Source: Erysipelotrichaceae bacterium OH741_COT-311 (lineage in GTDB: Bacteria > Bacillota_I > Bacilli_A > Erysipelotrichales > Erysipelotrichaceae). Taken from it: a DNA stretch of 32,000 bases. Numbering within the stretch: position 1 is the stretch's first letter; every line of letters starts with the position of its first letter. The stretch lies in the NCBI GenBank assembly GCA_003858585.1, contig RQZE01000008.1:45544-77543 (forward strand), written 5' to 3'. The translations under genes and the position numbers were made by a program. Below are positions 1 to 30,996 of the stretch, in pieces. The notes under the pieces were generated by a model, which was not told the origin of the DNA, did not search any database, and was given only the letters and a program-made list of their open reading frames with translations.

Positions 1-2709
<2,709 letters not shown>

Positions 2710-2713
<4 letters not shown>

Positions 2714-2919
2714 CGATCTTTTACAATTTGATATGTACTTCCTTCTATTACAACAATATCCCCATGATACAACTTACGTCCACGACGATCTTCTTTTGCA
2801 TTATTTACAGTGATGTTTAGTTGTTTTACCATACATTTAGCTTGACCGCCACTTTGGATATAATCCGTTAATTTTAATAATTGTCCAAGGGTAATATATT
2901 CACTTGTAATATGAATCAT
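2710..2919 (-). CDS. yaaA: Small S4-domain RNA-binding protein (YaaA-like)
   Basis: 69-aa ORF with a 4-nt overlap with recF. It occupies the conserved dnaN-yaaA-recF position, and ITLGQLLKL...GGQAK is S4-like. Confidence 0.85.
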
Positions 2920-2992
2920 AATATCAATTTCCTTTTTTATACTAGATTATTATATCATAGTTTAATGTAATGTAGGTACCTACATATAAAAT

Positions 2993-3023
2993 AAAAAAAG
3001 CGCTTATTTTCAAAATAAACGCT
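2993..3023 (-). terminator. Rho-independent terminator after dnaN
   Basis: Inverted repeat agcgcttatttt / aaaataaacgct (2999-3010 / 3012-3023, one mismatch). On the minus strand it is followed by the T-run encoded by the plus-strand A-run 2993-2999. Confidence 0.55.
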
Positions 3024-3034
3024 ATATTCTAACA

Positions 3035-4159
3035 TTAGTTATAACTTCTTACCGGTAATACTAACTGAATAATACTTTCATCAACTAAAGAATTAATAAT
3101 AAACTGCTTCATTTCTCCACTGAAGTTAATCTTAACACGGGCATTTCCTAAAGCACGTAAAGCTTCAATGACATAACGACCGCTAAATGATAACTCAATC
3201 GGTTCTCCTTGATAGATAGCTCCATCTAATAATTCTTCTGATGATCCTACTTCTTGACTTCTCGATGAAACAATGACTTCTTCCGGACTTGCGGTTAATT
3301 TAATAATACTGATTCCTTCATTTTTAATGAAAGAAGCACGGTCAATCGCTTTTAATAATTCATAACCATCTACCTCTAAGAAACGATTAAAGTCTTTTAA
3401 AATCAAACGTTCTGCATCCGGATAATCTTCATTGATTAAACGAGTTTGAATGATGGTAGTATCAATAAAGAATTGTGCTTTTTTATTTGATACTGAAACT
3501 TGAATGTCTTTTTCTTCATTTAATGATTTTAAAACTTCATTTAAACTCTTTGCCGGAATTGTAATATTAAAAGTATTTGGTGTATCCAAATCTACCGTTT
3601 TTAATGCTAAACGATAGCTATCGGTAGCAATACATTTTAATTCATTACCGGAAGCTTTAAAATTTACTCCTGTTAAAGCAGGACGTGTTTCTTTATCTGA
3701 TGTTGCGAAAGTAGTTTGATTGATAATATCAACTAACGTTTTAGATGGCAAGGTAAAAGATTGTTCACATACGGTAAAATCAATTAATGGATAATCCGTA
3801 CTTCGAATACCATTGATATTAAATTCAGCATGATCACCACTGATTTTTGTTAATGAACCATCTACAATTTCAATCGTAATTTCACTGCTTTCAATCTTAC
3901 GAACAATTTCCATGATATATCTTGATTCAATAACAATACTACCTACTTCATTAACAATTAAGTTTAATTGTTCATTAGTATCATTGGATAATCTTGTTTG
4001 TATTGAAATATTAGAATCGGAACCTGTTAAAATTAATTCATTGTCTTTTACATCGATTTTGATACCTGTTAAAGAAGGTAATGGAGAATTATGAGAAACT
4101 GCACCTGCCACAATTGTAAGCGCATTGTAAAATGCTTTTTTTGAAACAATAAAATTCAT
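3035..4159 (-). CDS. dnaN: DNA polymerase III beta sliding clamp
   Basis: 374-aa ORF directly downstream of dnaA with the typical three-domain length. N-terminus MNFIVSKKAFYNALTIVAGAVS...PLPSLTGIKI and a C-terminal ...LVLPVRSYN-type ending. Confidence 0.95.
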   Translation of the reverse strand: MNFIVSKKAFYNALTIVAGAVSHNSPLPSLTGIKIDVKDNELILTGSDSNISIQTRLSNDTNEQLNLIVNEVGSIVIESRYIMEIVRKIESSEITIEIVDGSLTKISGDHAEFNINGIRSTDYPLIDFTVCEQSFTLPSKTLVDIINQTTFATSDKETRPALTGVNFKASGNELKCIATDSYRLALKTVDLDTPNTFNITIPAKSLNEVLKSLNEEKDIQVSVSNKKAQFFIDTTIIQTRLINEDYPDAERLILKDFNRFLEVDGYELLKAIDRASFIKNEGISIIKLTASPEEVIVSSRSQEVGSSEELLDGAIYQGEPIELSFSGRYVIEALRALGNARVKINFSGEMKQFIINSLVDESIIQLVLPVRSYN

Positions 4160-4299
4160 AGCGTTACTCCTTTTTATTTTTTATAAAGATTAAATACTAT
4201 TAGGACTGTGGATACTGTGTATAAGTTATAAAAGTCCTTATATACTAAAACTATTCTATCAAATTTTTATGTTAATTAAAAGTGAATAATTGTGGATAA
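4160..4299. other. oriC, dnaA-dnaN intergenic half (DnaA boxes plus AT-rich candidate unwinding region)
   Basis: Read on the dnaA-sense strand: a perfect TTATCCACA (complement of 4291-4299, abutting the dnaA stop) and GTATCCACA (complement of 4207-4215). These are followed by the very AT-rich stretch 4165-4206 just upstream of the dnaN RBS. Confidence 0.7.
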
Positions 4300-5649
4300 T
4301 TATACCTTGATAAGATGTTCAATCTCCATAATAACTTTTTGAAATAATGGATTCTCTTTGATCTGTTTCTCAACTTTTTCACAGGCATTCATTACTGTTG
4401 AATGATCACGTTTTCCGAATTCATCCCCTATTTTTAAATATGGCAAATCTAAATGTTTACGTGATAAATACATAGCAATATGGCGTGCTGTGGCTACATT
4501 TTTCGTGCGTACCTTAGATGTAAGTTGCTGTTTTGTTAAACCATAGTAATCACAGATAATCTTTTTTATAAAGTTAATGTTTAATTCCGTCTTTGTTTCC
4601 ACAACTTGTCCTTTAAAAGCATCCATTGCCATGGCTAAATCAATTTTATTACGCACACCTTTAAAATTAATGGAATAGAATAATAAACGAGTTAAAGCTC
4701 CTTCTAATGAACGAACATCCTTAGAGAAATTGGTTGCGATATAGGCTAAGGTATCTTCAGTAACGGTTTGTTTTAAATCTGTGTTATTGGTAAGTTTTGA
4801 TTTTAAAATATTAATACTTGTTTCAAACTCCGGAGATTCAATATTTACATTTAAGCCAGAATTAAAACGTGAAATAATACGATCTTCAAGTCCTTGGATT
4901 TCACTAGGAATGCAATCACTTGTTAAACAGATTTGTTTACGGTTATTTACAAGTTCATTAAACACACTAAAAAAGATTTCATGTGTCTTTTCTTTTCCGG
5001 CAATAAATTGAATGTCATCTACTAAAAGAAGGTCTAAATCATAGAGTTCTTTTTTAAATTCATCAAGTTTATTGGCTTTTGAGGATTTAACTACACAGTC
5101 AACAAATTCTAAACCGGAGATTAATCCAATCTTTTTATCTGGAAACATCTTTTTTACATGATTGCCAATGGCATTGAGTAAGTGTGTTTTTCCAAGACCT
5201 GAATTACCATAGATAAACAATGGATTGTAAGTGGTACCTGGATTATTTGCACATGTAAAAGCTGCAACCTGACTTTGTACATTGGAATTACCGATGACGA
5301 AATTTTCAAATGTATAATCACTTTTTAATTTATTTTTTAGGAAGTATGTTTTTACTTCGTTTGATTTTTGAATGCCAAAATGTTCAAAATATTGATTTTT
5401 AATAAATACTTCACAGTGTATTGTTCCATTTACAATGCGACTGATGTGATCGTTAATACTTGCTAAATAGTTATTAACAATCGCTAAACCCATATTATTT
5501 TCAACGATGATAATGGCTTTATTGTTATTGATGCTGTGGATATATGAAGTTTGCAAGTATTGTAGTGAATACGAATCATTGATCTCAAGGTCTAATAATT
5601 CTGTTGTTTTATTCCAAATATCCAGCAGGTATCTCTCATTTGTAACCAT
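4300..5649 (-). CDS. dnaA: Chromosomal replication initiator protein DnaA
   Basis: 449-aa ORF with AAA+ Walker A GNSGLGKTHLL, Walker B LLLVDDIQF and a C-terminal DnaA-box-binding HTH (VATARHIAMYLSRK...GDEFGKRDHSTV). The RBS is gggggg. Confidence 0.97.
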   Translation of the reverse strand: MVTNERYLLDIWNKTTELLDLEINDSYSLQYLQTSYIHSINNNKAIIIVENNMGLAIVNNYLASINDHISRIVNGTIHCEVFIKNQYFEHFGIQKSNEVKTYFLKNKLKSDYTFENFVIGNSNVQSQVAAFTCANNPGTTYNPLFIYGNSGLGKTHLLNAIGNHVKKMFPDKKIGLISGLEFVDCVVKSSKANKLDEFKKELYDLDLLLVDDIQFIAGKEKTHEIFFSVFNELVNNRKQICLTSDCIPSEIQGLEDRIISRFNSGLNVNIESPEFETSINILKSKLTNNTDLKQTVTEDTLAYIATNFSKDVRSLEGALTRLLFYSINFKGVRNKIDLAMAMDAFKGQVVETKTELNINFIKKIICDYYGLTKQQLTSKVRTKNVATARHIAMYLSRKHLDLPYLKIGDEFGKRDHSTVMNACEKVEKQIKENPLFQKVIMEIEHLIKV

Positions 5650-19644: not shown

Positions 19645-21228
19645 ATGGATAACAATCAAATTAAAACAAATGAAAGTATTCAACGTTCAGAATTACATCG
19701 AAAAATATGGGCAATTGCAGATAATGTACGTGGAACTGTAGATGGATGGGATTTTAAACAATACATACTAGGTATTTTATTCTATCGTTTTATTTCTGAA
19801 AATATGAAAGAATATTTTAATAAGGCAGAACATGAAGCAGGAGATTTGAAGTTTGATTATGCACGTATTTCTGATGAAGAAGCAGAACAATACTTCAAAC
19901 CCAATACAGTAGAAGATAAGGGTTATTTCATTCTTCCAAGTCAATTATTTGAAAACGTTGTAGAAAAAGCGAGAGTGAATTCAAATTTAAATGTTGAATT
20001 AGATACAATTTTTAAAAATATTGAATCAAGTGCAGTTGGTTTTGCATCTGAAGATGATATTAAAGGATTATTTGAAGATATTGATGTGCGTAGCAGTCGT
20101 TTAGGAAACACAGTTGAAGAAAAAAATAAGCGTTTAGCTGATATTTTAATTGGTATTTCAGAAATAAATTTTGGTCGCTTTGAAGAAAATCAAATTGATG
20201 CTTTCGGGGATGCGTATGAATATTTAATTTCTAACTATGCAAGTAATGCAGGAAAATCGGGTGGAGAGTACTTTACTCCACAAACCGTTTCTAAATTATT
20301 AGCTAGATTAGTTATGGAAGGAAAGAAAAAAATTAATAAAGTATATGATCCAACATGTGGCAGTGGTTCTTTACTTTTACAAATGAAAAAACAATTCGAA
20401 GAACATATTATCGAAGATGGTTTTTTTGGTCAAGAAAGTAATATGACAAACTATAACTTATCAAGAATGAATATGTTTTTACATAATATAAACTATAATA
20501 AGTTTTCAATTAAACATGGTGATACCTTATTAAAACCAATGCATAATGATGAAAAACCATTTGATGCAATTGTATCAAATCCTCCTTATTCAATTAAATG
20601 GGTAGGAGATGGAGATCCTACATTAATTAATGATGTACGTTTTGCTCCAGCTGGAAAACTTGCACCAAAAAAAAAAGCAGATTATGCATTTATTATGCAT
20701 TCCTTAAATTATTTATCTAGTCAAGGACGAGCAGCAATTGTTTGTTTCCCCGGAATCTTTTATCGAAAGAGTGCTGAAAAAACTATAAGACAATATCTAG
20801 TGGATAATAACTTTATTGATTGTGTTATTCAGTTACCAGAAAACTTATTCTTTGGAACTTCCATTGCAACTTGTGTTTTAGTTATGTCAAAAAATAAAAC
20901 TGAAAATAAAATATTATTTATTGATGCAAGTAAAGAATTTAAAAAAGAAACAAACAATTATATTTTAGAAGAAAAAAATATTGAAGTAATCGTAGAGGGA
21001 TTTAAAAACAGATCAGATAAACAATATTTTTCAAGATATGTAGATAAAAGTGAAATAGAAGAAAACGATTATAATTTATCTGTTTCAACATATGTAGAAA
21101 AAGAAGATACAAGAGAAGTTATTGATATTAAAGCTTTAAATAAAGAAATCGAAGAAACTGTAAGAAAAATTAATGAATTAAGAGATTCTATTAATGAAAT
21201 AGTAAAGGAGTTAGAAACAGATGCTTAA
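19645..21228 (+). CDS. hsdM: Type I restriction-modification system, DNA methyltransferase subunit
   Basis: 527 aa with an HsdM N-terminal domain, SAM motif [13 protein letters not shown] and catalytic motif [10 protein letters not shown]. hsdS and hsdR follow. Confidence 0.96.
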
Positions 21229-21294
21229 CAGTCAATGCAACTATCAACTAATAGTTGACAGTTCAAAAATTGTTAAATAATTGGGAAAAATAAT

Positions 21295-23235
21295 ATGAAA
21301 AAAATAGATAATTTATTACAAAATGAACATGTTGAATGGAAGAAATTAGGAGAAGTATGTGAGATTTTGAATGGGTATTCTTTTAAAAGTGAAAGCTATT
21401 CCTTTAGTGGAATACGTGTAATTAGAATTTCTGATGTTCAAAATGGATTTATTTCCAATAAAGAACTCAAGTATTATTCGTCAAATAATATCAAAGAAAT
21501 AGAAAGGTATTTATTATATGAAGATGATTTAGTAATTTCTTTAACTGGTAATGTAGGTCGCGTAGCACTAATTGATAAGTCTATTTTGCCTGCGGCTCTT
21601 AACCAAAGGGTTGCTTGTATTCGTTGTCCTAATCAAATAACATCAAAATATTTATTTCATTTTCTCAATCAAAATTTATTTGAAAAGATGGCAATTCAAA
21701 ATTCAAGTGGAGGAGGTCAAAAAAATTTAAGTACAATTTGGTTGAATAATTACGAAATCCCAATTCCTTCGTTAAAAACTCAAGAAAAAATAGTAAAAAC
21801 ACTTGACAAATTTACAAATTGTGTTACTGAACTACAGGCTGAACTACAGGCAAGAAATAAACAATATAATTACTATAGAGATAAATTACTAAGTGAAGAA
21901 TATCTAGGCAAAATCTCAAAGAAAATAGATAAGTTGGAAAATAAAAAGTATCAATTAAGAAGTACAACTCTTGGTGACGTAGGAGAATTCACAAGAGGGA
22001 ATGGATTACAAAAAAGTGATTTTACTTATAAAGGAAAACCAGCAATTCATTACGGTCAAATATATACCAAGTATGGATTTTCCACAGATAAAACAATTTC
22101 ATATGTAAGTGATGCGACTTATTCTAAATTAAGAAAAGCAAAAACAAATGATATTTTGATAGCTACAACCTCTGAAAACATAGAGGATGTTGGTAAAAGT
22201 ACAGTTTGGCTTGGAAAGGAAGAAATAGGATTTTCAGGAGATATGTATAGCTATAGCACAAATGAAAATTCTAAGTATATTGCTTATTATTTTCAAACTG
22301 AAGAATTTCATAAACAAAAAGCTAGAAAAATATCTGGAACAAAATTAATTCGTATTCACGGAGATGATATGAAAAAATTTTGCATAACTCTTCCATCACT
22401 AGAAATTCAAGAAAAAATTGTGGAAATTTTAGATAAATTTCAATCTATGCTTTCCGATACTCAAGGACTGTTGCCAAAAGAAATTGAGCAAAGAAAAAAA
22501 CAATATGAATATTATCGTGAAAAACTATTGACATTCAATACGATATGTGATAGCAAGCAAGCAAGCAAGATAATACCTACTAATTATTTTACTATATTAA
22601 AAGAAGCAGCAAATATTGTAGATGTAGAACTATATGCAGTTAAATGGAAAAGCCTTGGTGAAATAGGGAAATTTGAAAATGGAACAGGTATGCCAAAAAC
22701 AATGTTTAGTATGTCTGAAACTATTGGTGCAATACATTATGGTCATATTTATACAAAATACAACATGTTTGTTTACAATCCGATTGTTAATGTGAGCACA
22801 GAAAATGCAAAGAAATTAAAAAAAGTAAATCAAGGAGATTTAGTTATTGCTAAAACTTCTGAAAATGTAGAAGATATTATGAAAACAGTGGCATATTTAG
22901 GTGAAGGTCAGGTGGTAACCGGAGGACATGCTGCAATATTTAGCCATCAAGAAAATCCAAAATATTTGTCTTATGTGTTTAATGGTGCAAGTTATCTTAT
23001 AAGTCAAAAAAATAAATTAGCAAAAGGAGTTAAAGTGATAGAATTATCTATCTCTGATATGGAAAAAATAAAAATTCCATTACCTTCTCTTCCTGTTCAA
23101 GAATACATTGTTTCTATTTTGGATAAGTTTGACATGCTTGTAAATGATATTTCTCAAGGGCTTCCAAAAGAAATTGAATTAAGAAAAAAACAATATGAAT
23201 ATTATAGAGAAAAACTATTTAGCTTTAATAAATGA
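21295..23235 (+). CDS. hsdS: Type I R-M specificity subunit with three target-recognition domains (TRD1-CR1-TRD2-CR2-linker-TRD3-CR3)
   Basis: 646 aa, against roughly 400-450 for a typical HsdS. There are three TRD-like blocks (aa ~12-157, ~222-366, ~449-596). Each is followed by a conserved helix: PSLKTQEKIV...ARNKQYNYYRDKLL, PSLEIQEKIV...QRKKQYEYYREKLL and PSLPVQEYIV...LRKKQYEYYREKLF. Confidence 0.9.
   Translation: MKKIDNLLQNEHVEWKKLGEVCEILNGYSFKSESYSFSGIRVIRISDVQNGFISNKELKYYSSNNIKEIERYLLYEDDLVISLTGNVGRVALIDKSILPAALNQRVACIRCPNQITSKYLFHFLNQNLFEKMAIQNSSGGGQKNLSTIWLNNYEIPIPSLKTQEKIVKTLDKFTNCVTELQAELQARNKQYNYYRDKLLSEEYLGKISKKIDKLENKKYQLRSTTLGDVGEFTRGNGLQKSDFTYKGKPAIHYGQIYTKYGFSTDKTISYVSDATYSKLRKAKTNDILIATTSENIEDVGKSTVWLGKEEIGFSGDMYSYSTNENSKYIAYYFQTEEFHKQKARKISGTKLIRIHGDDMKKFCITLPSLEIQEKIVEILDKFQSMLSDTQGLLPKEIEQRKKQYEYYREKLLTFNTICDSKQASKIIPTNYFTILKEAANIVDVELYAVKWKSLGEIGKFENGTGMPKTMFSMSETIGAIHYGHIYTKYNMFVYNPIVNVSTENAKKLKKVNQGDLVIAKTSENVEDIMKTVAYLGEGQVVTGGHAAIFSHQENPKYLSYVFNGASYLISQKNKLAKGVKVIELSISDMEKIKIPLPSLPVQEYIVSILDKFDMLVNDISQGLPKEIELRKKQYEYYREKLFSFNK
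21829..21852 (+). repeat. 12-bp tandem duplication in the hsdS central conserved region
   Basis: gaactacaggct (21829-21840) followed by gaactacaggca (21841-21852), encoding ELQA-ELQA within ...VTELQAELQARNKQY... Confidence 0.9.
22474..22529 (+). repeat. Direct repeat copy 1 (hsdS CR2)
   Basis: ccaaaagaaattga...agaaaaaaacaatatgaatattat...aaaaactatt. Blocks of 14, 24 and 10 nt are identical to 23164-23219, exactly 690 bp (230 codons) downstream. Confidence 0.9.
22552..22569 (+). repeat. Tetranucleotide microsatellite (GCAA)4.5 inside hsdS
   Basis: agcaagcaagcaagcaag, encoding SKQASK. It lies 13 nt after the end of conserved region 2. Confidence 0.95.
23164..23219 (+). repeat. Direct repeat copy 2 (hsdS CR3)
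   Basis: See copy 1. The two copies are in frame with each other. Confidence 0.9.
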
Positions 23236-23251
23236 GTAAGGAGGGATTCGT

Positions 23252-26200
23252 GTGGAAGAGGTTAAAAGTCTGTATTGTACATCTTCAATTGCTGAGATGA
23301 CAAATGGGATTATTTTAGCTAATTATGAAAAAGTTTTAAGTGTACAAGAGTCGTATCAAACAGAAGCACAGTTGGAGAGTTATTTAATTGATAATTTAGA
23401 ATCACAAGGCTATGAAAGGTTTGTAGCACATACTAGTGAAGATTTATATAATAACTTAAAGATTCAAATGGAGCGTTTAAATAAAGTAACATTTACTTCT
23501 TCAGAGTGGAATCGCTTTTTAAATGAATTTTTGGATTGTCCAAATGATGGAATGATTGAAAAGACACGAAAAATTCAAGAAAATCACTTGTATGATTTTA
23601 TTTTTGATGATGGTAGCCTTGTTAATCTTAAAATCATAGATAAGCTAAATATACACAATAACTTCTTACAGGTTACAAATCAAATTGTACAATTTGGTAA
23701 ACATAAAAATCGTTATGATGTAACGATATTAATTAATGGATTACCTTTGGTTCATATTGAATTAAAGAGTCGTGGTGTAAGATTGCGTGAAGCATTTGAT
23801 CAAATACATCGATATAGCAAAGAGAGTTTTAATGCAAACCATTCTTTATACAAATATGTACAAATTTTTGTCATATCTAATGGTACGCATACACGTTATT
23901 TTGCAAATACAACTGCTCAAAATAAAAATAATTATGAGTTTACATGTGAATGGGCAGATGCAAAAAACAAAGCCATTAAAGATTTAGAAGATTTTACTAA
24001 AACATTTTTTGAAAAACGTGTATTACTAGAGGTATTAACAAAATATTGTGTATTTGATGTTAAGGATACATTATTAATATTACGACCTTATCAAATTGCA
24101 GCAACTGAGCGTATTTTATGGAAAATTAAATCAAGTTATGAAAGTAAAAGATCGGGAAAAGTAGAAGCTGGGGGATATATTTGGCATACAACAGGTTCTG
24201 GGAAGACATTAACTTCTTTTAAAACTGCCCGCTTAGCAACATCTCTATCGATTATCGATAAAGTATTTTTTGTAGTTGATCGTAAAGACTTGGACTATCA
24301 AACTATGAAAGAATATCAAAGATATCAAAAAGATAGTGTAAATGGTAGTAAAGATACAAAAGCGCTAAAAAAAGTTATAGAGCTAAATGATAATAAAATT
24401 ATTGTGACTACAATTCAAAAGTTAAATGAATTTGTAAAGAGAAATCAAAATCATGAAATATATCAAAAACATTGTGTTTTAATTTTTGATGAATGTCACC
24501 GTTCTCAATTTGGAGAAGCACAAAAAAATATAAAAAAAGCGTTTAAAAAATATTATCAGTTTGGTTTTACAGGAACGCCAATTTTTCCAGAAAATGCGAT
24601 TGGAACAGATACAACATCAAGTATTTTTGGTGCACAGCTACATAGTTATGTTATTACTGATGCGATTCGTGATGGTAAGGTTTTGAAGTTCAAAGTAGAT
24701 TATCATAATGTAAATGCTAAGTTTAAATCCGAAGAAAAAGAAACAGATTTAATGAAATTAAAGAGCTATGAAAAAAAGGTTTTAGCTTTACCAGAAAGAA
24801 TTTCAAGTATTACAAAACATATTTTAAAGGTATTTGATGATAAAACACGTCGTAATGAGTATTATGATTTGAAAAAGCGTCGATTAAATGGGTTTAATGC
24901 AATGTTTGCGGTTTCTAGTATAGAAGCAGCTAAATTATATTATGAAGAGTTTCAAAGACAACAAAAAGAACTTCCAGAAGAAAAAAGGCTTAAGGTAGCT
25001 ACAATTTATAGCTTTTCTGCAAATGAAGAGCAAAATGCAATAGGAGATATTGTAGAAGAAACATTTGAGCCTACTGCACTTGATTCTTCTTCAAAAGAAT
25101 TTTTAAGTAAAGTGATTAAAGATTATAATGGATACTTTAAAACAAATTATTCTCTTGATGGAAATGAATTTCAAAACTACTACAAAGATTTATCGGCAAG
25201 AGTTGCGAATCGTGAAGTTGATCTTTTAATTGTGGTTGGAATGTTTCTGACAGGATTTAATGCAGAAACGTTAAATACGTTGTTTGTAGATAAGAATTTA
25301 AGATATCATGGTCTAATACAAGCCTTTTCAAGAACTAATCGTATTTTAAATAAAGTGAAAACTTTTGGTAATATTGTATGTTTTCGTGATTTAGAAAAAG
25401 CAACTCAAGAAGCAATTAAAGTGTTTGGTGATGAAAATAGTGTAAATATTATTTTAGAGAAAAGTTATACAGAATATATTAATGGATTTGAAGATCAAGA
25501 AAGTGGAAGTGCATTTAAAGGTTATGAAAAAATATGTAAAGAAATCCTTGCCAAATTTCCTGATCCAACAGAAATTATTTTAGATGAAGACAAAAAAGAG
25601 TTTGTAAAATTGTTTGGTGAGCTTTTGAAAGCAGAGAATATTCTTAAGAATTTTGATGAATTTGAAAGTTATGATAATGGTATTTCTGAACGTCAAATGC
25701 AAGATATGAAGAGTGTTTATGTAGATATTCGAGAAGAAATATTAAATCAAAAACAACAAGAGAAAAACGAAAATGCAGGCATTGATTTTTCTGACATCGA
25801 GTTTCAAATAGATTTATTAAAAACAGATGAAATAAATTTAGATTATATTTTAGCTTTAATTTATGAAAAATCAAAAGAGCATAAAGATATTGAAGTATTG
25901 AAGTATGAAATTAGTCGCATCATACGTTCAAGTTTAGAAACGAGAGCAAAAGAAAAGCTTGTTATGGACTTTATTAATCATACTCGCATTTCAGAGCTTA
26001 AAACAAGCAAAGATATTATTAAATCATTCTATGAGTTTGCGAATAGAGAAAAGAAAAAAGAAGTCGAAAGATTAATTCAAGAAGAACATTTAAAAGAAGA
26101 AGCGGTTCGTTTTATTGAAAAGTCAATTGAAAAAGGATGGGTAGAAAATGCAGGCATTGAGCTGGATAGTGTTTTACCTCCTGTATCAAGAAGACAAGGT

Positions 26201-26272
26201 GCACGTGAAGCGAAAAAGCAACAAGTACTAGATAAAATTCGTAAGTTGGTAGAAGTATTTGTGGGGGTATAA
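23252..26272 (+). CDS. hsdR: Type I R-M restriction endonuclease/translocase subunit
   Basis: 1006 aa with a GTG start at 23252 and RBS aaggaggg. N-terminal PD-(D/E)xK motif (YDVTILINGLPLVHIELK) and SF2 motifs HTTGSGKT and FDECHRSQ. Confidence 0.95.
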   Translation: MEEVKSLYCTSSIAEMTNGIILANYEKVLSVQESYQTEAQLESYLIDNLESQGYERFVAHTSEDLYNNLKIQMERLNKVTFTSSEWNRFLNEFLDCPNDGMIEKTRKIQENHLYDFIFDDGSLVNLKIIDKLNIHNNFLQVTNQIVQFGKHKNRYDVTILINGLPLVHIELKSRGVRLREAFDQIHRYSKESFNANHSLYKYVQIFVISNGTHTRYFANTTAQNKNNYEFTCEWADAKNKAIKDLEDFTKTFFEKRVLLEVLTKYCVFDVKDTLLILRPYQIAATERILWKIKSSYESKRSGKVEAGGYIWHTTGSGKTLTSFKTARLATSLSIIDKVFFVVDRKDLDYQTMKEYQRYQKDSVNGSKDTKALKKVIELNDNKIIVTTIQKLNEFVKRNQNHEIYQKHCVLIFDECHRSQFGEAQKNIKKAFKKYYQFGFTGTPIFPENAIGTDTTSSIFGAQLHSYVITDAIRDGKVLKFKVDYHNVNAKFKSEEKETDLMKLKSYEKKVLALPERISSITKHILKVFDDKTRRNEYYDLKKRRLNGFNAMFAVSSIEAAKLYYEEFQRQQKELPEEKRLKVATIYSFSANEEQNAIGDIVEETFEPTALDSSSKEFLSKVIKDYNGYFKTNYSLDGNEFQNYYKDLSARVANREVDLLIVVGMFLTGFNAETLNTLFVDKNLRYHGLIQAFSRTNRILNKVKTFGNIVCFRDLEKATQEAIKVFGDENSVNIILEKSYTEYINGFEDQESGSAFKGYEKICKEILAKFPDPTEIILDEDKKEFVKLFGELLKAENILKNFDEFESYDNGISERQMQDMKSVYVDIREEILNQKQQEKNENAGIDFSDIEFQIDLLKTDEINLDYILALIYEKSKEHKDIEVLKYEISRIIRSSLETRAKEKLVMDFINHTRISELKTSKDIIKSFYEFANREKKKEVERLIQEEHLKEEAVRFIEKSIEKGWVENAGIELDSVLPPVSRRQGAREAKKQQVLDKIRKLVEVFVGV

Positions 26273-26290
26273 AAATTAGTATATATTTAG

Positions 26291-27592
26291 ATGAGGGGAG
26301 ATAATAATACTGTGAAAAAGCATATATTGTTGAAGTATCTAGATGAATACTTTGAAGTTAACATAACTTTAGATTCAAAGTATACTATTGGAGATAATAT
26401 TAATAAAATTTGCACACTTTCAGAATATCAAGAAATAGTTCAAAATAATTTGATTTTTTGGGAAAAAAACTTTAAAAATGAAACAATTAGTTATTTTTCG
26501 TTTTGGGAAGAAAAACAAAAAAAATTAAATCAAATATATGGTATGATGCAACAAATAAAAAAAGAAGAATTTATATCTAAATTAAATGAAATTTGTGATT
26601 TTCTTAGTGTTGGACGGTTTAACGATAGTGGAATAGAAAATAAAATAAAAAAACAAATAAATATCAAAATAGAATCTCTTTTGATTGGGTGCTGTCAATT
26701 TGAAAGGTGTATACATTTTATAAAATTAATATATGATAATGATGATAAAAGTCTAAGAACTGAACAAATTTTACACAATTATATATATTTAATAAAGAAT
26801 CCTTATATGATAGGGTCATATTTTTCATCAAACTACAAAGAACAAAGTTTTCCAGCTTATGTGTTGTTATCAGAAAATATAAAATCGGAAAATAAAAATT
26901 GGACTTTGATTTCAAAAAATATTGAAGAAGATTTGGCTCATGAAAAAGAAAATTTGGAGAAAAGTTTTCAAGAAAAGTATAGCGATGCAATTCAAGAAAT
27001 ACACGATATAGAAAAAGAAATAAGAGAATTTTCAGAAAAATATCATGAGGAAAAAAATAAGAGACTGAAAGAATTAGAAGAACAAAATCAAAAATTAGTA
27101 AATAATTTATCAGTTTTAGAGACAACATATAAAGAAAAACTAAAATTAGAAGCTCCAGAACAACTATGGATTGAAAAAGCTAAACAGCAGAAAAAATCAG
27201 TAGTAATTTGGCTTTTAATTACTATCTGTACCGCTATTTTGTTGATTTACTCATTGGGTTGGCTCATTCCAACAATCTATGAATCTAATTTGAAAGAGAA
27301 TATAATTTTAAATAAAAGTTTTTTCTTGATTGCAATTATAACATTTTTTGTCTATATCATTAGGATAGAAGTTAAAGTTTTGCTTTCTTCAAGGCACCTT
27401 CAGTTAGTATATGAAGAAAAAGCTGCATTAACTAGATTTTATCAAGCATTAATATATGCTGGAAATCATATAGATGAAAATCAACTACTTTTAATTTATA
27501 GTATGTTATTTAAGGATACGGATACTGGGTTGGTGAAATCAAGTGATGGCACAGATATTGAAAGTATTGTTTCCACAATAATTCGAAAATAA
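26291..27592 (+). CDS. Uncharacterised coiled-coil / two-TM protein appended to the hsd operon
   Basis: 433-aa ORF 18 nt after the hsdR stop with no intervening hairpin. N-terminal ~200 aa have no motif I recognise; aa ~208-300 form a K/E-rich coiled coil. TM helices are SVVIWLLITICTAILLIYSLGWLIP and FFLIAIITFFVYIIRIEVKVLL, followed by a ~65-aa tail. The start is ambiguous: ATG 26291 lacks an SD, and the in-frame GTG 26312 follows gagggga. Confidence 0.75.
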   Translation: MRGDNNTVKKHILLKYLDEYFEVNITLDSKYTIGDNINKICTLSEYQEIVQNNLIFWEKNFKNETISYFSFWEEKQKKLNQIYGMMQQIKKEEFISKLNEICDFLSVGRFNDSGIENKIKKQINIKIESLLIGCCQFERCIHFIKLIYDNDDKSLRTEQILHNYIYLIKNPYMIGSYFSSNYKEQSFPAYVLLSENIKSENKNWTLISKNIEEDLAHEKENLEKSFQEKYSDAIQEIHDIEKEIREFSEKYHEEKNKRLKELEEQNQKLVNNLSVLETTYKEKLKLEAPEQLWIEKAKQQKKSVVIWLLITICTAILLIYSLGWLIPTIYESNLKENIILNKSFFLIAIITFFVYIIRIEVKVLLSSRHLQLVYEEKAALTRFYQALIYAGNHIDENQLLLIYSMLFKDTDTGLVKSSDGTDIESIVSTIIRK

Positions 27593-27638
27593 AATAGTTT
27601 ATAATCGTTGAATAATTACTTACAATTCTTAAATATAA

Positions 27639-27668
27639 AAAGAAGTTTAGCTTTAACTAAACTTCTTT
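27639..27668. terminator. Bidirectional terminator shared by the 433-aa ORF and the NERD gene
   Basis: 12-bp stem aaagaagtttag / ctaaacttcttt with loop ctttaa. It overlaps the last codons and stop of the NERD gene. Confidence 0.65.
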
Positions 27669-28252
27669 CTGTTTTCATAAGGTAACAGCTCATCTACAAC
27701 ACCTTTTAGTAAAGGGTGATAGTCGTATATGAATTTTTCTATTTGATTAAATTTAATGACATTCCTTATATCTGTTTTCAGCCTTGTTCGATTGGCAAAA
27801 ACAACCACCGAAACCAATGAGTCATGATCAACACCTGTAAAGGCTGAAATAGTCTTTGTATGTGCATAGTTTTGACGTAGTGGATTTTGAAAGCGATACT
27901 TTTGTTTACCAAGATAATGTGTCCATTGACTACTAAACGATGTGCCATACACACTTCCTGCATAGTTTTTAATTTCTGCAACAAACGTACTTCCGTTAAA
28001 TTCAAACACACAATCTATTTCAATTTCTTTTTCATCATTTTCCAACACTACATTCATTACAATATCTTCAACCCCCATAGCAACTAATTGATTATAAAAA
28101 TGAATTTCGGCACGTTTTCCTTTGTTTAAAAAGTAGATATAAAATGGTGTTTGATATCTAATATAATAAGGAGTTTTATGATAATTTAATCTCTGAAACC
28201 AAAAAAATGCAAAAACAAATAAAATAATGAGTAACATAATAATCCCCTTCAC
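27653..28252 (-). CDS. Membrane-anchored NERD-domain (nuclease-related, PD-(D/E)xK-like) protein
   Basis: 199 aa with an N-terminal TM helix (IIMLLIILFVFAFFWF). NERD-like core GKRAE...EIDCVFEFNGSTFVAEIKNYAGSVYG...W...QNPLRQNYAH. Starts at GTG 28252 (RBS gagga) or ATG 28237. Confidence 0.8.
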   Translation of the reverse strand: MKGIIMLLIILFVFAFFWFQRLNYHKTPYYIRYQTPFYIYFLNKGKRAEIHFYNQLVAMGVEDIVMNVVLENDEKEIEIDCVFEFNGSTFVAEIKNYAGSVYGTSFSSQWTHYLGKQKYRFQNPLRQNYAHTKTISAFTGVDHDSLVSVVVFANRTRLKTDIRNVIKFNQIEKFIYDYHPLLKGVVDELLPYENRKKFS

Positions 28253-28334
28253 ATTCCATCCTCAATAAGACTATTATATAATAAAACTAAAGAAGGCAAT
28301 AAAGGATTTTAAAACCCTTTTAGAAAGGTCATCT

Positions 28335-29249
28335 ATGAAAACACTCTTAATTGGAAATGGATTAAATCGTTGTCTAAATACAAACATAGACTGGGGAAAC
28401 CTTTTAAACAGCATGAAAGAACACTATCATCTAAAAGATAAAATACATCCTGACATCAGTTTTCCTATGCAGTTTGAATGCATTGCCAATCATGTAAGTA
28501 AGCAAAAACACCACAAAAACGTATATACTCTTCTTAAAGAAGAAATCGCATCTAAGGTAAAGGAAATCAAAGCCATAGATGATAAGGAAATGGTACCACA
28601 TAGTTACTTTTTAAAAGACAAACGATATAAACGCATTCTAACAACCAACTACGACTATGTAATAGAAGACTACTTAAAACATACCTACAACCTTGCTGAT
28701 GAAGACCTTACATCCAATCAAAAAGAAATTAAGTATAGTTTAAGACGTTATCGTAAACTTCAAGATACTTACATCTTTCATATTCATGGAGAAGCCGATA
28801 AACCTGAAACCTTATGTTTGGGCTATGAACATTATGCAGGCACTATTCAATATCTACGTGGTAAACTTGCGTTGAAGGAAACATCACCACTATTGCATGT
28901 TTTAAAAAATAAACAAGTTACTCCAGACATCATTGAAACTTATTCTTGGGCAATTTTATTCTTGATTGATGATATTGAGATTATAGGATTAGGACTGGAT
29001 GAATCCGAGATTGATTTATGGTGGCTGATTAGTTATCGTGCTTATTTAAAGAATATGCATCCAGAAGCTTCTAGGTATATTCATAACACCATTACTTATC
29101 ATGAAATAATTAGTGAACATAGTGATTTACAATATATTAAAAAACGTAAAAGTCTGTTTGACAGTATGGACATTCAATACACAATGCATGAAGTAAAACA
29201 TTCTAATTATCTAGAAGGCTACTACGACATTGCAAAGACAATCGAATAA
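28335..29249 (+). CDS. AbiH-like / SIR2_2-like (DHS-like NAD-binding fold) protein
   Basis: 304 aa with an N-terminal Gly loop LLIGNGLNR, then ILTTNYD (N105), IFHIHGE (H151) and IIGLGLDESEIDLWW. This is the ordered motif set shared by the AbiH and SIR2_2 families. It has no SLOG, TIR or other extra domain. Confidence 0.7.
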   Translation: MKTLLIGNGLNRCLNTNIDWGNLLNSMKEHYHLKDKIHPDISFPMQFECIANHVSKQKHHKNVYTLLKEEIASKVKEIKAIDDKEMVPHSYFLKDKRYKRILTTNYDYVIEDYLKHTYNLADEDLTSNQKEIKYSLRRYRKLQDTYIFHIHGEADKPETLCLGYEHYAGTIQYLRGKLALKETSPLLHVLKNKQVTPDIIETYSWAILFLIDDIEIIGLGLDESEIDLWWLISYRAYLKNMHPEASRYIHNTITYHEIISEHSDLQYIKKRKSLFDSMDIQYTMHEVKHSNYLEGYYDIAKTIE

Positions 29250-29315
29250 GGTAGTATATATTAAAATTAGATGCTAGAAATATGATACAGTATAGTAAAA
29301 CATTAGGGGGTTATC

Positions 29316-30590
29316 ATGCAAAAACTAAAGGTTTTCTTTCTTAAAAATATTACATGGATTTATACACTGGAATACATTGCGTTTTCGATTGTTTTATTGT
29401 TTGTAGTTTCCTTGATTGATTTGCGAATTTTACCAATCAAAGACTTTCTTCCGGATATTATTAAACTTCGTGTGGATTTTTCACAAGGAATTTTAACATC
29501 TTTAGCAGCAGCCTTTTTAACAATCACAACCTTTACCTTTTCAACCATTTTAACGGTATTAAATACCTATGCTTCCAGTTTTACACCAAGAGTAGTAGAA
29601 AACTTTATTAATCGAAAGATTACTTTAAAAGTAGTTGGTATCTTCATTGGTGGATTCTTTTATTGCATAGGATCCTTAATCTTTACACGAGAAGTGTTGC
29701 ATAATGAAGCGGTAATTTCAGGCTTTGTAGCGATTATTTATTCGATTATTTGTATTATTTATTTCATTATTTTTGTACAAGAAGTCATCACGAAGTTTCA
29801 AGGCGTGAATGTCATTTTAGATGTTGCGGATATGGCACAGAAAGTCATTGATGAAGAAGTAGCGATTCGTAAACAAAGCCAAGCCATTCAACGTAAGGAG
29901 CATTATGTAACCCATCAAATTCAAGCCAAACAATCCGGTTATTTTAGCTTAGTTGATTTGGATGCGATTTTAAGCATGATGAAAGATCAGGAAGGCTACT
30001 TAAGCATAGATTGTAAGATTGGACAATACGTTGCCAAGGGAATGGACATCGCAACAGTGTCATTAAAAGATGTTTTTGAAGAAGAACTGGAAGAAAAGAT
30101 TTTAGATACTTTTGTGTTTCAAGATCAAAAACTGGCAGCCACAGATTATCGTTATAACATTACTAAGTTACTGGAGATTGCTTTGCGTGCGATTTCTCCG
30201 GGTATCAACGACCCAAATACCGCAATTCACTGTATTAATAAATTAGGGGTTTTATTATCACCGATGGCAAGCATCGATACCTATCACATCCAAAAGGCAG
30301 AAAATAGACAATTTCGTATTTACTATAGTTCTTATGGCTTTCAAGATGATTTAGAAACCTTTTATTTACCATTAATGCAATATGGCAAAGAAGATTTACA
30401 AGTTGTAGTAGCAATCTTACAAAGTTTAACGTTATTGTATCAAAATGCAACACAAATCAATCAAAGACATATTCAAACTGTGATACAACATGTAGAAGAA
30501 AAAGTCAAACCATGTTTTACCACTTCTTTAGAGACTTCGATTCTATCACAACATCTGCAAGGTTTCAAAGATACTAGCCAAGAAGGATAA
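29316..30590 (+). CDS. DUF2254-family membrane protein
   Basis: 424 aa with four N-terminal TM helices containing ...YASSFTPRVVENF.... The soluble C-terminal domain carries the family-typical ALRAISPGINDPNTAIHCINKLG. Confidence 0.75.
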   Translation: MQKLKVFFLKNITWIYTLEYIAFSIVLLFVVSLIDLRILPIKDFLPDIIKLRVDFSQGILTSLAAAFLTITTFTFSTILTVLNTYASSFTPRVVENFINRKITLKVVGIFIGGFFYCIGSLIFTREVLHNEAVISGFVAIIYSIICIIYFIIFVQEVITKFQGVNVILDVADMAQKVIDEEVAIRKQSQAIQRKEHYVTHQIQAKQSGYFSLVDLDAILSMMKDQEGYLSIDCKIGQYVAKGMDIATVSLKDVFEEELEEKILDTFVFQDQKLAATDYRYNITKLLEIALRAISPGINDPNTAIHCINKLGVLLSPMASIDTYHIQKAENRQFRIYYSSYGFQDDLETFYLPLMQYGKEDLQVVVAILQSLTLLYQNATQINQRHIQTVIQHVEEKVKPCFTTSLETSILSQHLQGFKDTSQEG

Positions 30591-30630
30591 AATCGTATAG
30601 AATAAGGCTACAGTTACAGTAGGAGGATTT

Positions 30631-30996
30631 ATGAGTTTTATTGGAAATCTGATTTGGTTTATTTTTGGTGGAGTTTGGTTAGCGCTTGGTTGGTTTGTAG
30701 TGGGAGTATTATGGTGTATTACGATTATCGGTATTCCTGTTGGTGTACAGTGTTTTAAGTTTGCAAGATTAGCCCTTTCTCCGTTTGGAAAAGATGTCGT
30801 ATATGGATATGGAGCATTTTCATTTATTATAAACGTCTTTTGGATTATCTTTGGTGGGATTCAATTAGCCTTAGGGTTTTCTATCTTAGGCTTTCTATTG
30901 TGTTTAACAATTATTGGGATTCCATTTGGCTTACAATGCTTCAAGTTTGCAAAACTAGCACTATTTCCTTTAGGAGCTAGAATTGTTCGTATTTAA
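30631..30996 (+). CDS. yccF: YccF-family inner membrane protein (DUF307)
   Basis: 121 aa with an internal duplication of ...IIGIP(V/F)G(V/L)QCFKFA(R/K)LAL..., characteristic of YccF. Confidence 0.88.
   Translation: MSFIGNLIWFIFGGVWLALGWFVVGVLWCITIIGIPVGVQCFKFARLALSPFGKDVVYGYGAFSFIINVFWIIFGGIQLALGFSILGFLLCLTIIGIPFGLQCFKFAKLALFPLGARIVRI

Follow-up and report, generated by a model that had tools for sequence, protein, structure and literature searches.

Three open reading frames (ORFs) lie directly 3′ of hsdR in a type I restriction–modification (R-M) operon (hsdM/hsdS/hsdR, 19645–26272) of Erysipelotrichaceae bacterium OH741_COT-311, within a 32,000-nt (32 kb) stretch of contig RQZE01000008.1 that we call the window and to which all unlabelled coordinates refer. 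Do these three genes form one defence machine, or several independent ones that share an address? A sequence-only reading had placed ORFs of 433, 199 and 304 aa here and had taken them together for one undescribed defence module. The ORFs are present as described, and further points of that reading are supported: that the trio is attached to a type I R-M operon, that the locus has the character of a defence island, and that it is not Thoeris, SIR2-HerA, DSR or Shedu. The single module is not: the three genes have no conserved linkage in other genomes, and the first belongs, by its profile matches, to a named family. The locus is probably no single machine of three components but a composite defence island nucleated on the type I R-M operon. 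This reading is based on family assignments, conserved catalytic residues, a predicted fold, the lack of conserved linkage and recurrent embedding in R-M and bacteriophage exclusion (BREX) operons.

Linkage of the three genes

Linkage was tested from three sides: from the third gene (SIR2), by look-ups in genomes, metagenomes and contigs; from the second (NERD), by the relatives found in two contexts; and from the first (AbiZ), by those found in three. The SIR2 side comprises about 28 distinct contexts, drawn from species-representative genomes, metagenomes, contig look-ups and one Salmonella record. The three genes do not co-occur in any of the ≈27 other SIR2, two NERD and three AbiZ contexts, and neither NERD nor DUF6161 (the AbiZ domain) was found among the scanned SIR2-family neighbors outside the window's clade. 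NERD adjoins SIR2 only in the window's own clade, that is, in the window and in the sister strains represented by loci L003 and L004, and AbiZ adjoins them only in the window and L004. Cross-genome co-occurrence had been set beforehand as a check on the single module, and it finds the trio linked in the window clade only; a second such check, hidden Markov model searches of Pfam and PADLOC, places the first gene in the named AbiZ family, against an undescribed trio.

The two sister strains locate a seam within the block. L004 keeps the three-gene order, with AbiZ truncated where its contig ends. Collinearity of L003 with the window (blastn) runs from 27638 rightwards, through NERD, SIR2 and the DUF2254 and YccF genes beyond, and 27638 is the edge of a bidirectional, terminator-like hairpin (27639–27668; 12-bp stem, 6-nt loop, −14.5 kcal/mol, z = −3.95) common to the converging AbiZ and NERD genes. 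The hairpin overlaps the last NERD codons and is the sole terminator-like site within 26000–29500. To its left in L003, a 309-aa tyrosine recombinase of the Phage_integrase family (L003 60–989) stands in AbiZ's place. The recombinase could be the integrase of a mobile genetic element or the recombinase of a phase-variable hsdS locus; the L003 contig ends nearby. As the breakpoint lies at the terminator hairpin, AbiZ, and presumably the R-M operon too, is separable from NERD–SIR2.

A second seam runs between NERD and SIR2 themselves. The NERD protein is only 66% identical between the window and L003/L004, compared with 94–99% for AbiZ, SIR2 and DUF2254, and its synonymous divergence (dS) between the window and L004 is 0.73 versus 0.08–0.13 for those three. 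A dS of 0.73 amid flanks of about 0.1 indicates that the NERD allele was swapped by recombination within an otherwise collinear block, while the ratio of nonsynonymous to synonymous divergence (dN/dS) of 0.32 indicates that the gene remains under purifying selection. Since recombination replaced the NERD allele next to a SIR2 gene that kept 94% identity, the two genes are not co-evolving as a unit, and they lack one common history even within the clade. The N-terminal transmembrane (TM)/linker region of NERD is completely different between the window (27653–28252) and L004 (784–1392) or L003 (1040–1648).

The AbiZ-family membrane protein

The first gene (26291–27592, + strand; 433 aa) starts 18 nt past the hsdR stop. 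The coiled coil and two TM helices described for its product are visible as a proline- and glycine-free, charge-rich stretch at about aa 218–300, followed by two hydrophobic segments at about aa 304–326 and 343–364 (hydropathy). The sequence-only reading needs correction in that the protein has a named family: it matches the PADLOC AbiZ model PDLC02354 at 3.5e-33 (aligned aa 159–424) and Pfam DUF6161 at 1.2e-36 (126.7 bits, gathering cutoff 27). A variable N-terminal part precedes the coiled-coil-like stretch and the TM helices, and the C-terminal tail beyond them is conserved; the TM segments line up with the corresponding region of lactococcal AbiZ. The latter is a 432-aa plasmid protein that matches the whole AbiZ model at 2.6e-166 and is encoded beside abiA and an LlaJI-family endonuclease gene. 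Gene 1 is 30% identical to it over 243 aa (E = 5e-25), in the coiled-coil/TM/C-terminal part, and no alignment with the lactococcal protein was found for the N-terminal ≈160–220 aa (BLASTP covers aa 221–433 only), which means that homology does not extend over the full length. More than 300 full-length homologues of about 429 aa occur in Streptococcus, Veillonella, Fusobacterium and Saccharibacteria.

The family resemblance extends to genomic position. In Streptococcus agalactiae, an AbiZ homologue starts 16 nt past a DpnII-type two-methylase R-M operon (L081–L083, 2407–6287); in a second group of loci (L087–L089, 877–11290), the homologue overlaps the end of hsdS within a type I operon that also has RhuM or KAP_NTPase and AAA_21/RloB genes; the Veillonella homologue is free-standing. 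No NERD or SIR2 neighbor was found in these three contexts. Because AbiZ homologues are appended to R-M operons elsewhere, the 18-nt hsdR–AbiZ junction is the usual habit of the family, and both the stand-alone and the R-M-appended contexts are compatible with AbiZ acting alone. AbiZ is described as a single-gene system that probably acts together with the phage holin to bring about premature lysis, a phenotype known for L. lactis AbiZ only (PMC13064643).

On the strength of these matches, we regard gene 1 as a new, divergent member of the named AbiZ family. Like AbiZ of L. lactis pTR2030 (433 versus 432 aa), it joins a coiled-coil-like stretch to a pair of TM helices and ends in a conserved tail, and it is a single gene adjoining an R-M system. 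It differs in that the ≈30% identity is confined to the C-terminal ≈240 aa, and in that it is chromosomal, near the replication origin of an oral bacterium of the Erysipelotrichaceae, and known here from sequence alone. The annotated ATG has no Shine–Dalgarno sequence and an in-frame GTG at 26312 sits 11 nt past AGGGGAG; the true product may be the 426 aa read from this GTG.

The stand-alone SIR2 protein

The third gene (28335–29249, + strand) encodes a stand-alone SIR2-domain protein of 304 aa, a predicted NAD+ hydrolase (NADase). It had been described as AbiH/SIR2_2-like with the NAD-pocket asparagine and the catalytic histidine intact. The SIR2_2 assignment stands (PF13289: 6.5e-8, 33.2 bits versus a gathering cutoff of 24.5), as do both residues: N105 (TTNYD) and H151 (HIHG) do not vary among 33 family members, and they line up with N112 and H152 of ThsA, the pair that was mutated in a study of that protein (PMC7272460). 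The AbiH half of the description does not stand, since neither PF14253 nor the PADLOC AbiH model matches at E ≤ 1. Further family invariants are G7-N8-G9, CLGYEHY and E225/D227/W229.

The AlphaFold2 model of gene 3 is confident (pLDDT 86.3, pTM 0.87). Its only significant Foldseek matches in the PDB are KomC, the Kongming NADase (2.3e-7, TM-score 0.63/0.68), and human FAM118B (8e-5); a profile search of the PDB ranks the SIR2 half of ThsA first among solved proteins (1.6e-9). Sequence and model together thus suggest a SIR2 domain with intact NADase residues whose closest characterized relatives are the defence NADases ThsA and KomC, not protein deacetylases. From these relatives we infer its NADase chemistry, its anti-phage activity and the existence of a trigger. 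We found no SLOG domain, TM helix or further sensor domain in the protein.

The family is moderately large and uniform in size: a profile search of 1.84 billion representatives returns 555 clusters at E ≤ 1e-30, nearly all of 290–320 aa. PADLOC has no family-level match for it. At the domain level, the ThsA models match all 33 of the family members weakly (best 2e-14), PDC-S25 matches 29 (best 1.2e-12), PDC-S21 15 (best 1.6e-10) and Dsr2 five, weakly (1.7e-6). Gene 3 itself matches PDC-S21 at 2.5e-4 and PDC-S25 not at all, scores that point to a related superfamily and not clearly to one and the same family. In two gut-metagenome contigs (L040, 44–1022; L047, 268–1205) the gene is split into two adjacent ORFs by a frameshift or as a pseudogene, as would be expected if the gene is dispensable and perhaps carries a cost.

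How does gene 3 compare with the named SIR2 systems? With ThsA of type I Thoeris it shares an alignable GxG N-terminal motif, the TTNYD asparagine and the HG histidine. The alignment covers ThsA 23–177 only, gene 3 lacks the SLOG/STALD signal-binding domain, and no TIR (ThsB) gene lies near it; Thoeris was rejected on these grounds, that is, a 304-aa protein matching the SIR2 half of ThsA only and no TIR match among the neighbors. KomC and FAM118B are, like gene 3, small and essentially single-domain SIR2 proteins, and both work as filaments. Their sequence identity to gene 3 is only 12–15%, and filament formation by gene 3 would be pure conjecture from them. The window has no komA (deaminase) or komB (NTP pyrophosphatase-like) gene, the neighbors being NERD, AbiZ, DUF2254 and YccF, and Kongming was rejected on this neighbor content together with the lack of any PADLOC or NCBIfam match of the komA/komB kind. 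AbiH of Lactococcus (PF14253) is comparable as a single-gene abortive-infection protein of similar size with a predicted sirtuin fold (PMC13064643), and a precomputed PF14253 match is present for 3 of 120 gene 3 homologues among the matches listed. DSR1/DSR2, SIR2-HerA and SPARSA were rejected as well (304 aa, not a sensor-fused protein of >1000 aa; no HerA or pAgo neighbor), as was PD-T7-2 by profile scans and neighbor content. PDC-S21, PDC-S25 and PrrC resemble the gene 3 family in being single genes embedded in type I R-M and BREX operons, but the two PDC families are candidates themselves, to which gene 3 scores at superfamily and not clearly at family level, and PrrC, an ABC-ATPase anticodon nuclease, does not belong to the SIR2 proteins. 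We found neither a NERD + SIR2 system nor the gene 3 family named in the literature.

Genomic contexts of the SIR2 family

About 11 of the ≈28 contexts, the window's clade included, have the SIR2-family gene within or next to an R-M operon (type I, type III or type IIG) or a BREX operon. Type I arrangements are hsdM-hsdS-SIR2-GmrSD-hsdR (L016), hsdM-hsdS-x-SIR2 (L011) and hsdM-hsdS-934 aa-SIR2 (L002). In the type III arrangements, SIR2 follows mod-res with overlapping stop and start (L010) or comes directly 3′ of the methylase, as mod-SIR2 (L034, L035 and L038). The BREX operons take it up at two places: between brxC and pglX, as in brxA-brxB-brxC-SIR2-pglX-...-pglZ (L075) and brxC-SIR2-pglX (L032), or after pglX, as in pglX-SIR2-...-pglZ (L037). 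It also occurs near a type IIG enzyme (L077) and adjoins an HsdR-N-domain protein in L030 and L071–74. Elsewhere the gene stands beside OLD-like, PLD-helicase, Cap4-nuclease, Septu-like PDC-M62 or large SIR2_2 proteins; it is cargo of an integrative and conjugative element in L090 and lies between housekeeping genes in L006–L008 and L071–74. Altogether, defence or mobile-element genes adjoin it in about 17 of the 28. In two metagenome loci (L048, 2869–7399; L039, 102–4244), the small SIR2 gene adjoins a gene for a large (>1000 aa), DSR-like SIR2_2 protein, so that two SIR2 proteins lie side by side.

No fixed partner of the family was found in the ≈28 contexts, and PADLOC scans of the Pfam-negative neighbors found nothing common to them. 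The recurrent embedding is of a published kind. In the “guilt-by-embedding” preprint of Payne et al. 2024 (10.1101/2024.01.29.577857), type I R-M and BREX are frequent hosts of embedded genes, with PrrC as the archetype. SIR2 is not mentioned in its text or the searched supplements, and “PDC-S21” does not occur in those supplements either. The embedding of the SIR2 family fits this pattern and extends it.

The membrane-anchored NERD protein

The second gene (27653–28252, − strand) has a GTG start and encodes 199 aa; the public record starts it at M6, giving 194 aa. Its description as a NERD nuclease-like protein with an N-terminal anchor is confirmed by Pfam (PF08378: 3e-15, 57.1 bits versus a gathering cutoff of 22.1) and by a hydrophobic, presumably TM helix at aa 4–20. 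Five relatives are detectable in a word-indexed search. Among the relatives G45, E49, D80, E93, K95 and the motif FQNPLRQNYAH are invariant, so the PD-(D/E)xK triad D80/E93/K95 is intact. The AlphaFold2 model (pLDDT 55) is too poor to confirm the NERD fold or to serve in a fold search.

An intact D/ExK in a NERD PD-(D/E)xK domain is what gene 2 shares with the NERD proteins of defence systems (the N-termini of PglW and MAD6, HEC-02B, Mokosh I and Nhi-like proteins), and it matches the PglW and MAD6 N-termini weakly. Those proteins are large and multidomain or paired with ABC ATPases; gene 2 has only its 199 aa and a TM anchor, and its nearest relatives are found in housekeeping contexts. The nearest ones outside the clade (35–38% identity) lie between thiamine/PEMT genes or beside a short-chain dehydrogenase (adh_short), and no SIR2_2 neighbor was found in these two contexts.

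Intergenic elements and flanking genes

The common hairpin and the 82-bp divergent spacer between NERD and SIR2 (28253–28334) are both as the sequence-only reading had them. The spacer carries promoter-like hexamers on both strands (+ strand, 28248–28277; − strand, 28265–28236), which are consensus matches only and overall not above shuffle expectation.

The 11-mer TAGTATATATT occurs at only two sites in the whole window, against 0.07 expected, and brackets exactly the three genes. The left copy (26277–26287, + strand), of uncertain significance, falls in the gap that separates hsdR from AbiZ; the right copy (29252–29262, + strand) is 2 nt past the SIR2 stop and coincides in part with a promoter-like −10 box ahead of DUF2254. 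The heptamer TTAGATG follows both copies on the 3′ side, after 0 or 5 nt. Extended alignment of the two flanks is unexceptional: in this AT-rich DNA, 5% of random window pairs score as high. L003 and L004 have the right copy only. The pair may be due to chance, to similar −10 boxes or to the junctions of a 2975-bp insertion.

The R-M operon itself is complete, with hsdM, hsdS and hsdR in one operon and with full domain sets. The hsdM gene (19645–21228, + strand), for the methyltransferase subunit, is an ORF upstream of the Pfam-confirmed hsdS and hsdR, and phmmer with HsdM finds N6_Mtase/HsdM genes of other loci. The hsdR gene (23252–26272, + strand) encodes a restriction/translocase subunit of complete architecture (Pfam HSDR_N, ResIII/SWI2_SNF2, T1R_D3-like and EcoR124_C, all E < 1e-40). 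The specificity subunit hsdS (21295–23235, + strand; Pfam Methylase_S 6.1e-55, three matched stretches) is unusually long at 646 aa. Its three Methylase_S (target-recognition) stretches, where two is the usual number, go with three copies of the conserved spacer, which form internal direct repeats (21764/22391 and 22474/23164). Fusion or duplication of a specificity subunit could explain this layout, and the repeats might allow switching by recombination.

On the left, recF, dnaN and dnaA (1634–5649) coincide with the minimum of the cumulative GC skew, which puts the chromosomal replication origin at about 4–6 kb; the locus is therefore about 20 kb from the origin. On the right, downstream of SIR2, a DUF2254 membrane protein and a YccF-family protein (29316–30996) are collinear in the sister strains and 98–99% and 88–98% identical there, respectively; from this conservation, they look like core flanking genes outside the island. 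DUF2254 matches a PHROG of unknown function (4.6e-20), and the PHROGs search found families of unknown function only. No tRNA genes or Rfam families that might serve as island landmarks were found within the window.

A probable composite island and its alternatives

In a composite island, hsdMSR would restrict unmethylated DNA, and the AbiZ-family gene would be an independent, single-gene abortive-infection cassette ended by the common hairpin, its two-TM product, by homology with Lactococcus AbiZ, presumably acting with the phage holin to lyse the cell prematurely. The SIR2 gene would be an independent single-gene effector, a bare ThsA/KomC-type domain that, once activated, possibly through oligomer or filament assembly as in its homologues KomC, FAM118B and ThsA, would hydrolyze NAD+ and abort the infection; its family would be a mobile cassette inserting into or next to methylation-based defence operons. 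The NERD gene would contribute a membrane-anchored, PD-(D/E)xK nuclease-like protein, a neighbor of SIR2 in this clade only and with its own recombination history. The anti-phage activity of each gene is what we infer by analogy with these characterized systems.

Several points weigh against independent genes. NERD and SIR2 diverge from a short common spacer and are together in 3/3 sampled strains of the clade, from which a local functional pairing might be read, unlikely as we hold it to be. Gene 3 has no obvious sensor and KomC needs its partner KomB, which argues that something else, possibly a neighbor, regulates gene 3. The TAGTATATATT bracketing could mean that the three genes arrived as one block. 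Lastly, the context sample is limited to about 28 SIR2, three AbiZ and two NERD loci.

Best placed among the alternatives, though we give it a low probability, is a clade-specific two-gene system in which a membrane-bound NERD protein would sense or cut incoming DNA and activate the SIR2 NADase or be antagonized by it, with AbiZ separate. The 82-bp control region common to the divergent genes fits such a system, as does the presence of the pair in all three strains (the window, L003 and L004), including the one that has another gene in place of AbiZ. So do the intact catalytic residues of both proteins, the dN/dS of 0.32 for NERD and a SIR2 protein that lacks a sensor. The pairing is nevertheless found in only one of the ≈28 SIR2 contexts and in none of the NERD-relative contexts, the three strains belong to one clade and so amount to a single evolutionary event, and the exchange of the NERD allele beside a SIR2 gene that is 94% identical is not what one co-evolving unit would show.

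Somewhat more doubtful still is the view of SIR2 as a PrrC-like back-up or guard of the adjacent methylation-based system, which would monitor the R-M or BREX complex or be kept inactive by it, depleting NAD+ when a phage anti-restriction protein disables R-M or BREX. Many family members lie far from R-M and BREX genes (L006–8, L090 and L036), and the unrelatedness of the host systems speaks against a specific protein–protein interaction. In the window, moreover, two genes and a terminator separate hsdR from SIR2, which has its own promoter region. The repeated embedding in the same orientation in type I, type III and BREX operons, sometimes with stop/start overlap (L010, L016, L075, L032 and L037), suits a guard, as do the precedent of PrrC in EcoprrI, the embedding concept (10.1101/2024.01.29.577857) and a protein without its own sensor domain, but the “genomic sink” behavior of defence loci explains the embedding equally well. 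It is on similarly slender odds that the whole family of 555 clusters would be an unnamed single-gene anti-phage NADase riding inside type I R-M, type III R-M and BREX operons as a back-up that is switched on once phage anti-restriction proteins have disabled the host system, the SIR2 counterpart of PrrC, which here would back up hsdMSR.

Could genes 2 and/or 3 not be defence genes at all, but a housekeeping membrane nuclease and a regulatory sirtuin or deacylase that merely sit beside an R-M operon? The NERD relatives among biosynthetic genes and the SIR2-family members between housekeeping genes (L006–L008 and L071–74) would allow it, but the closest characterized relatives of the SIR2 family are the defence NADases ThsA and KomC, about 17 of its 28 contexts adjoin defence or mobile-element genes, and its distribution is patchy, with pseudogenized copies (L040 and L047); we consider it improbable. 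Weakest is the integrated three-gene system of membrane sensor/effector, nuclease and NADase, which we hold to be highly improbable and which the comparative data largely refute: tight packing, the common terminator, the common divergent promoter region, the TAGTATATATT copies bracketing exactly the trio and the order kept in L004 speak for it, but L003 lacks AbiZ and breaks at the hairpin, AbiZ is a validated single-gene system whose homologues never adjoin NERD or SIR2 in the contexts examined, SIR2 homologues outside the clade never adjoin AbiZ in theirs, and the bracket is not exceptional by alignment score.

Significance

A new three-gene system, if true, would be a new defence architecture; the comparative evidence does not support one. 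There is some novelty, confined to the unnamed, R-M/BREX-embedded SIR2 family, which belongs to an already well-known class, the SIR2 defence effectors, and opens no new category. The locus illustrates clearly, rather, how a type I R-M operon serves as the landing pad for independent single-gene abortive-infection cassettes, and the AbiZ-like and SIR2-like families are each found appended to R-M operons in unrelated bacteria. The SIR2 family itself is an unnamed, moderately large family of bare SIR2 proteins with intact NADase residues that recurs in type I, type III and BREX operons, and it would serve as a compact model for how a SIR2 protein without a sensor is activated.

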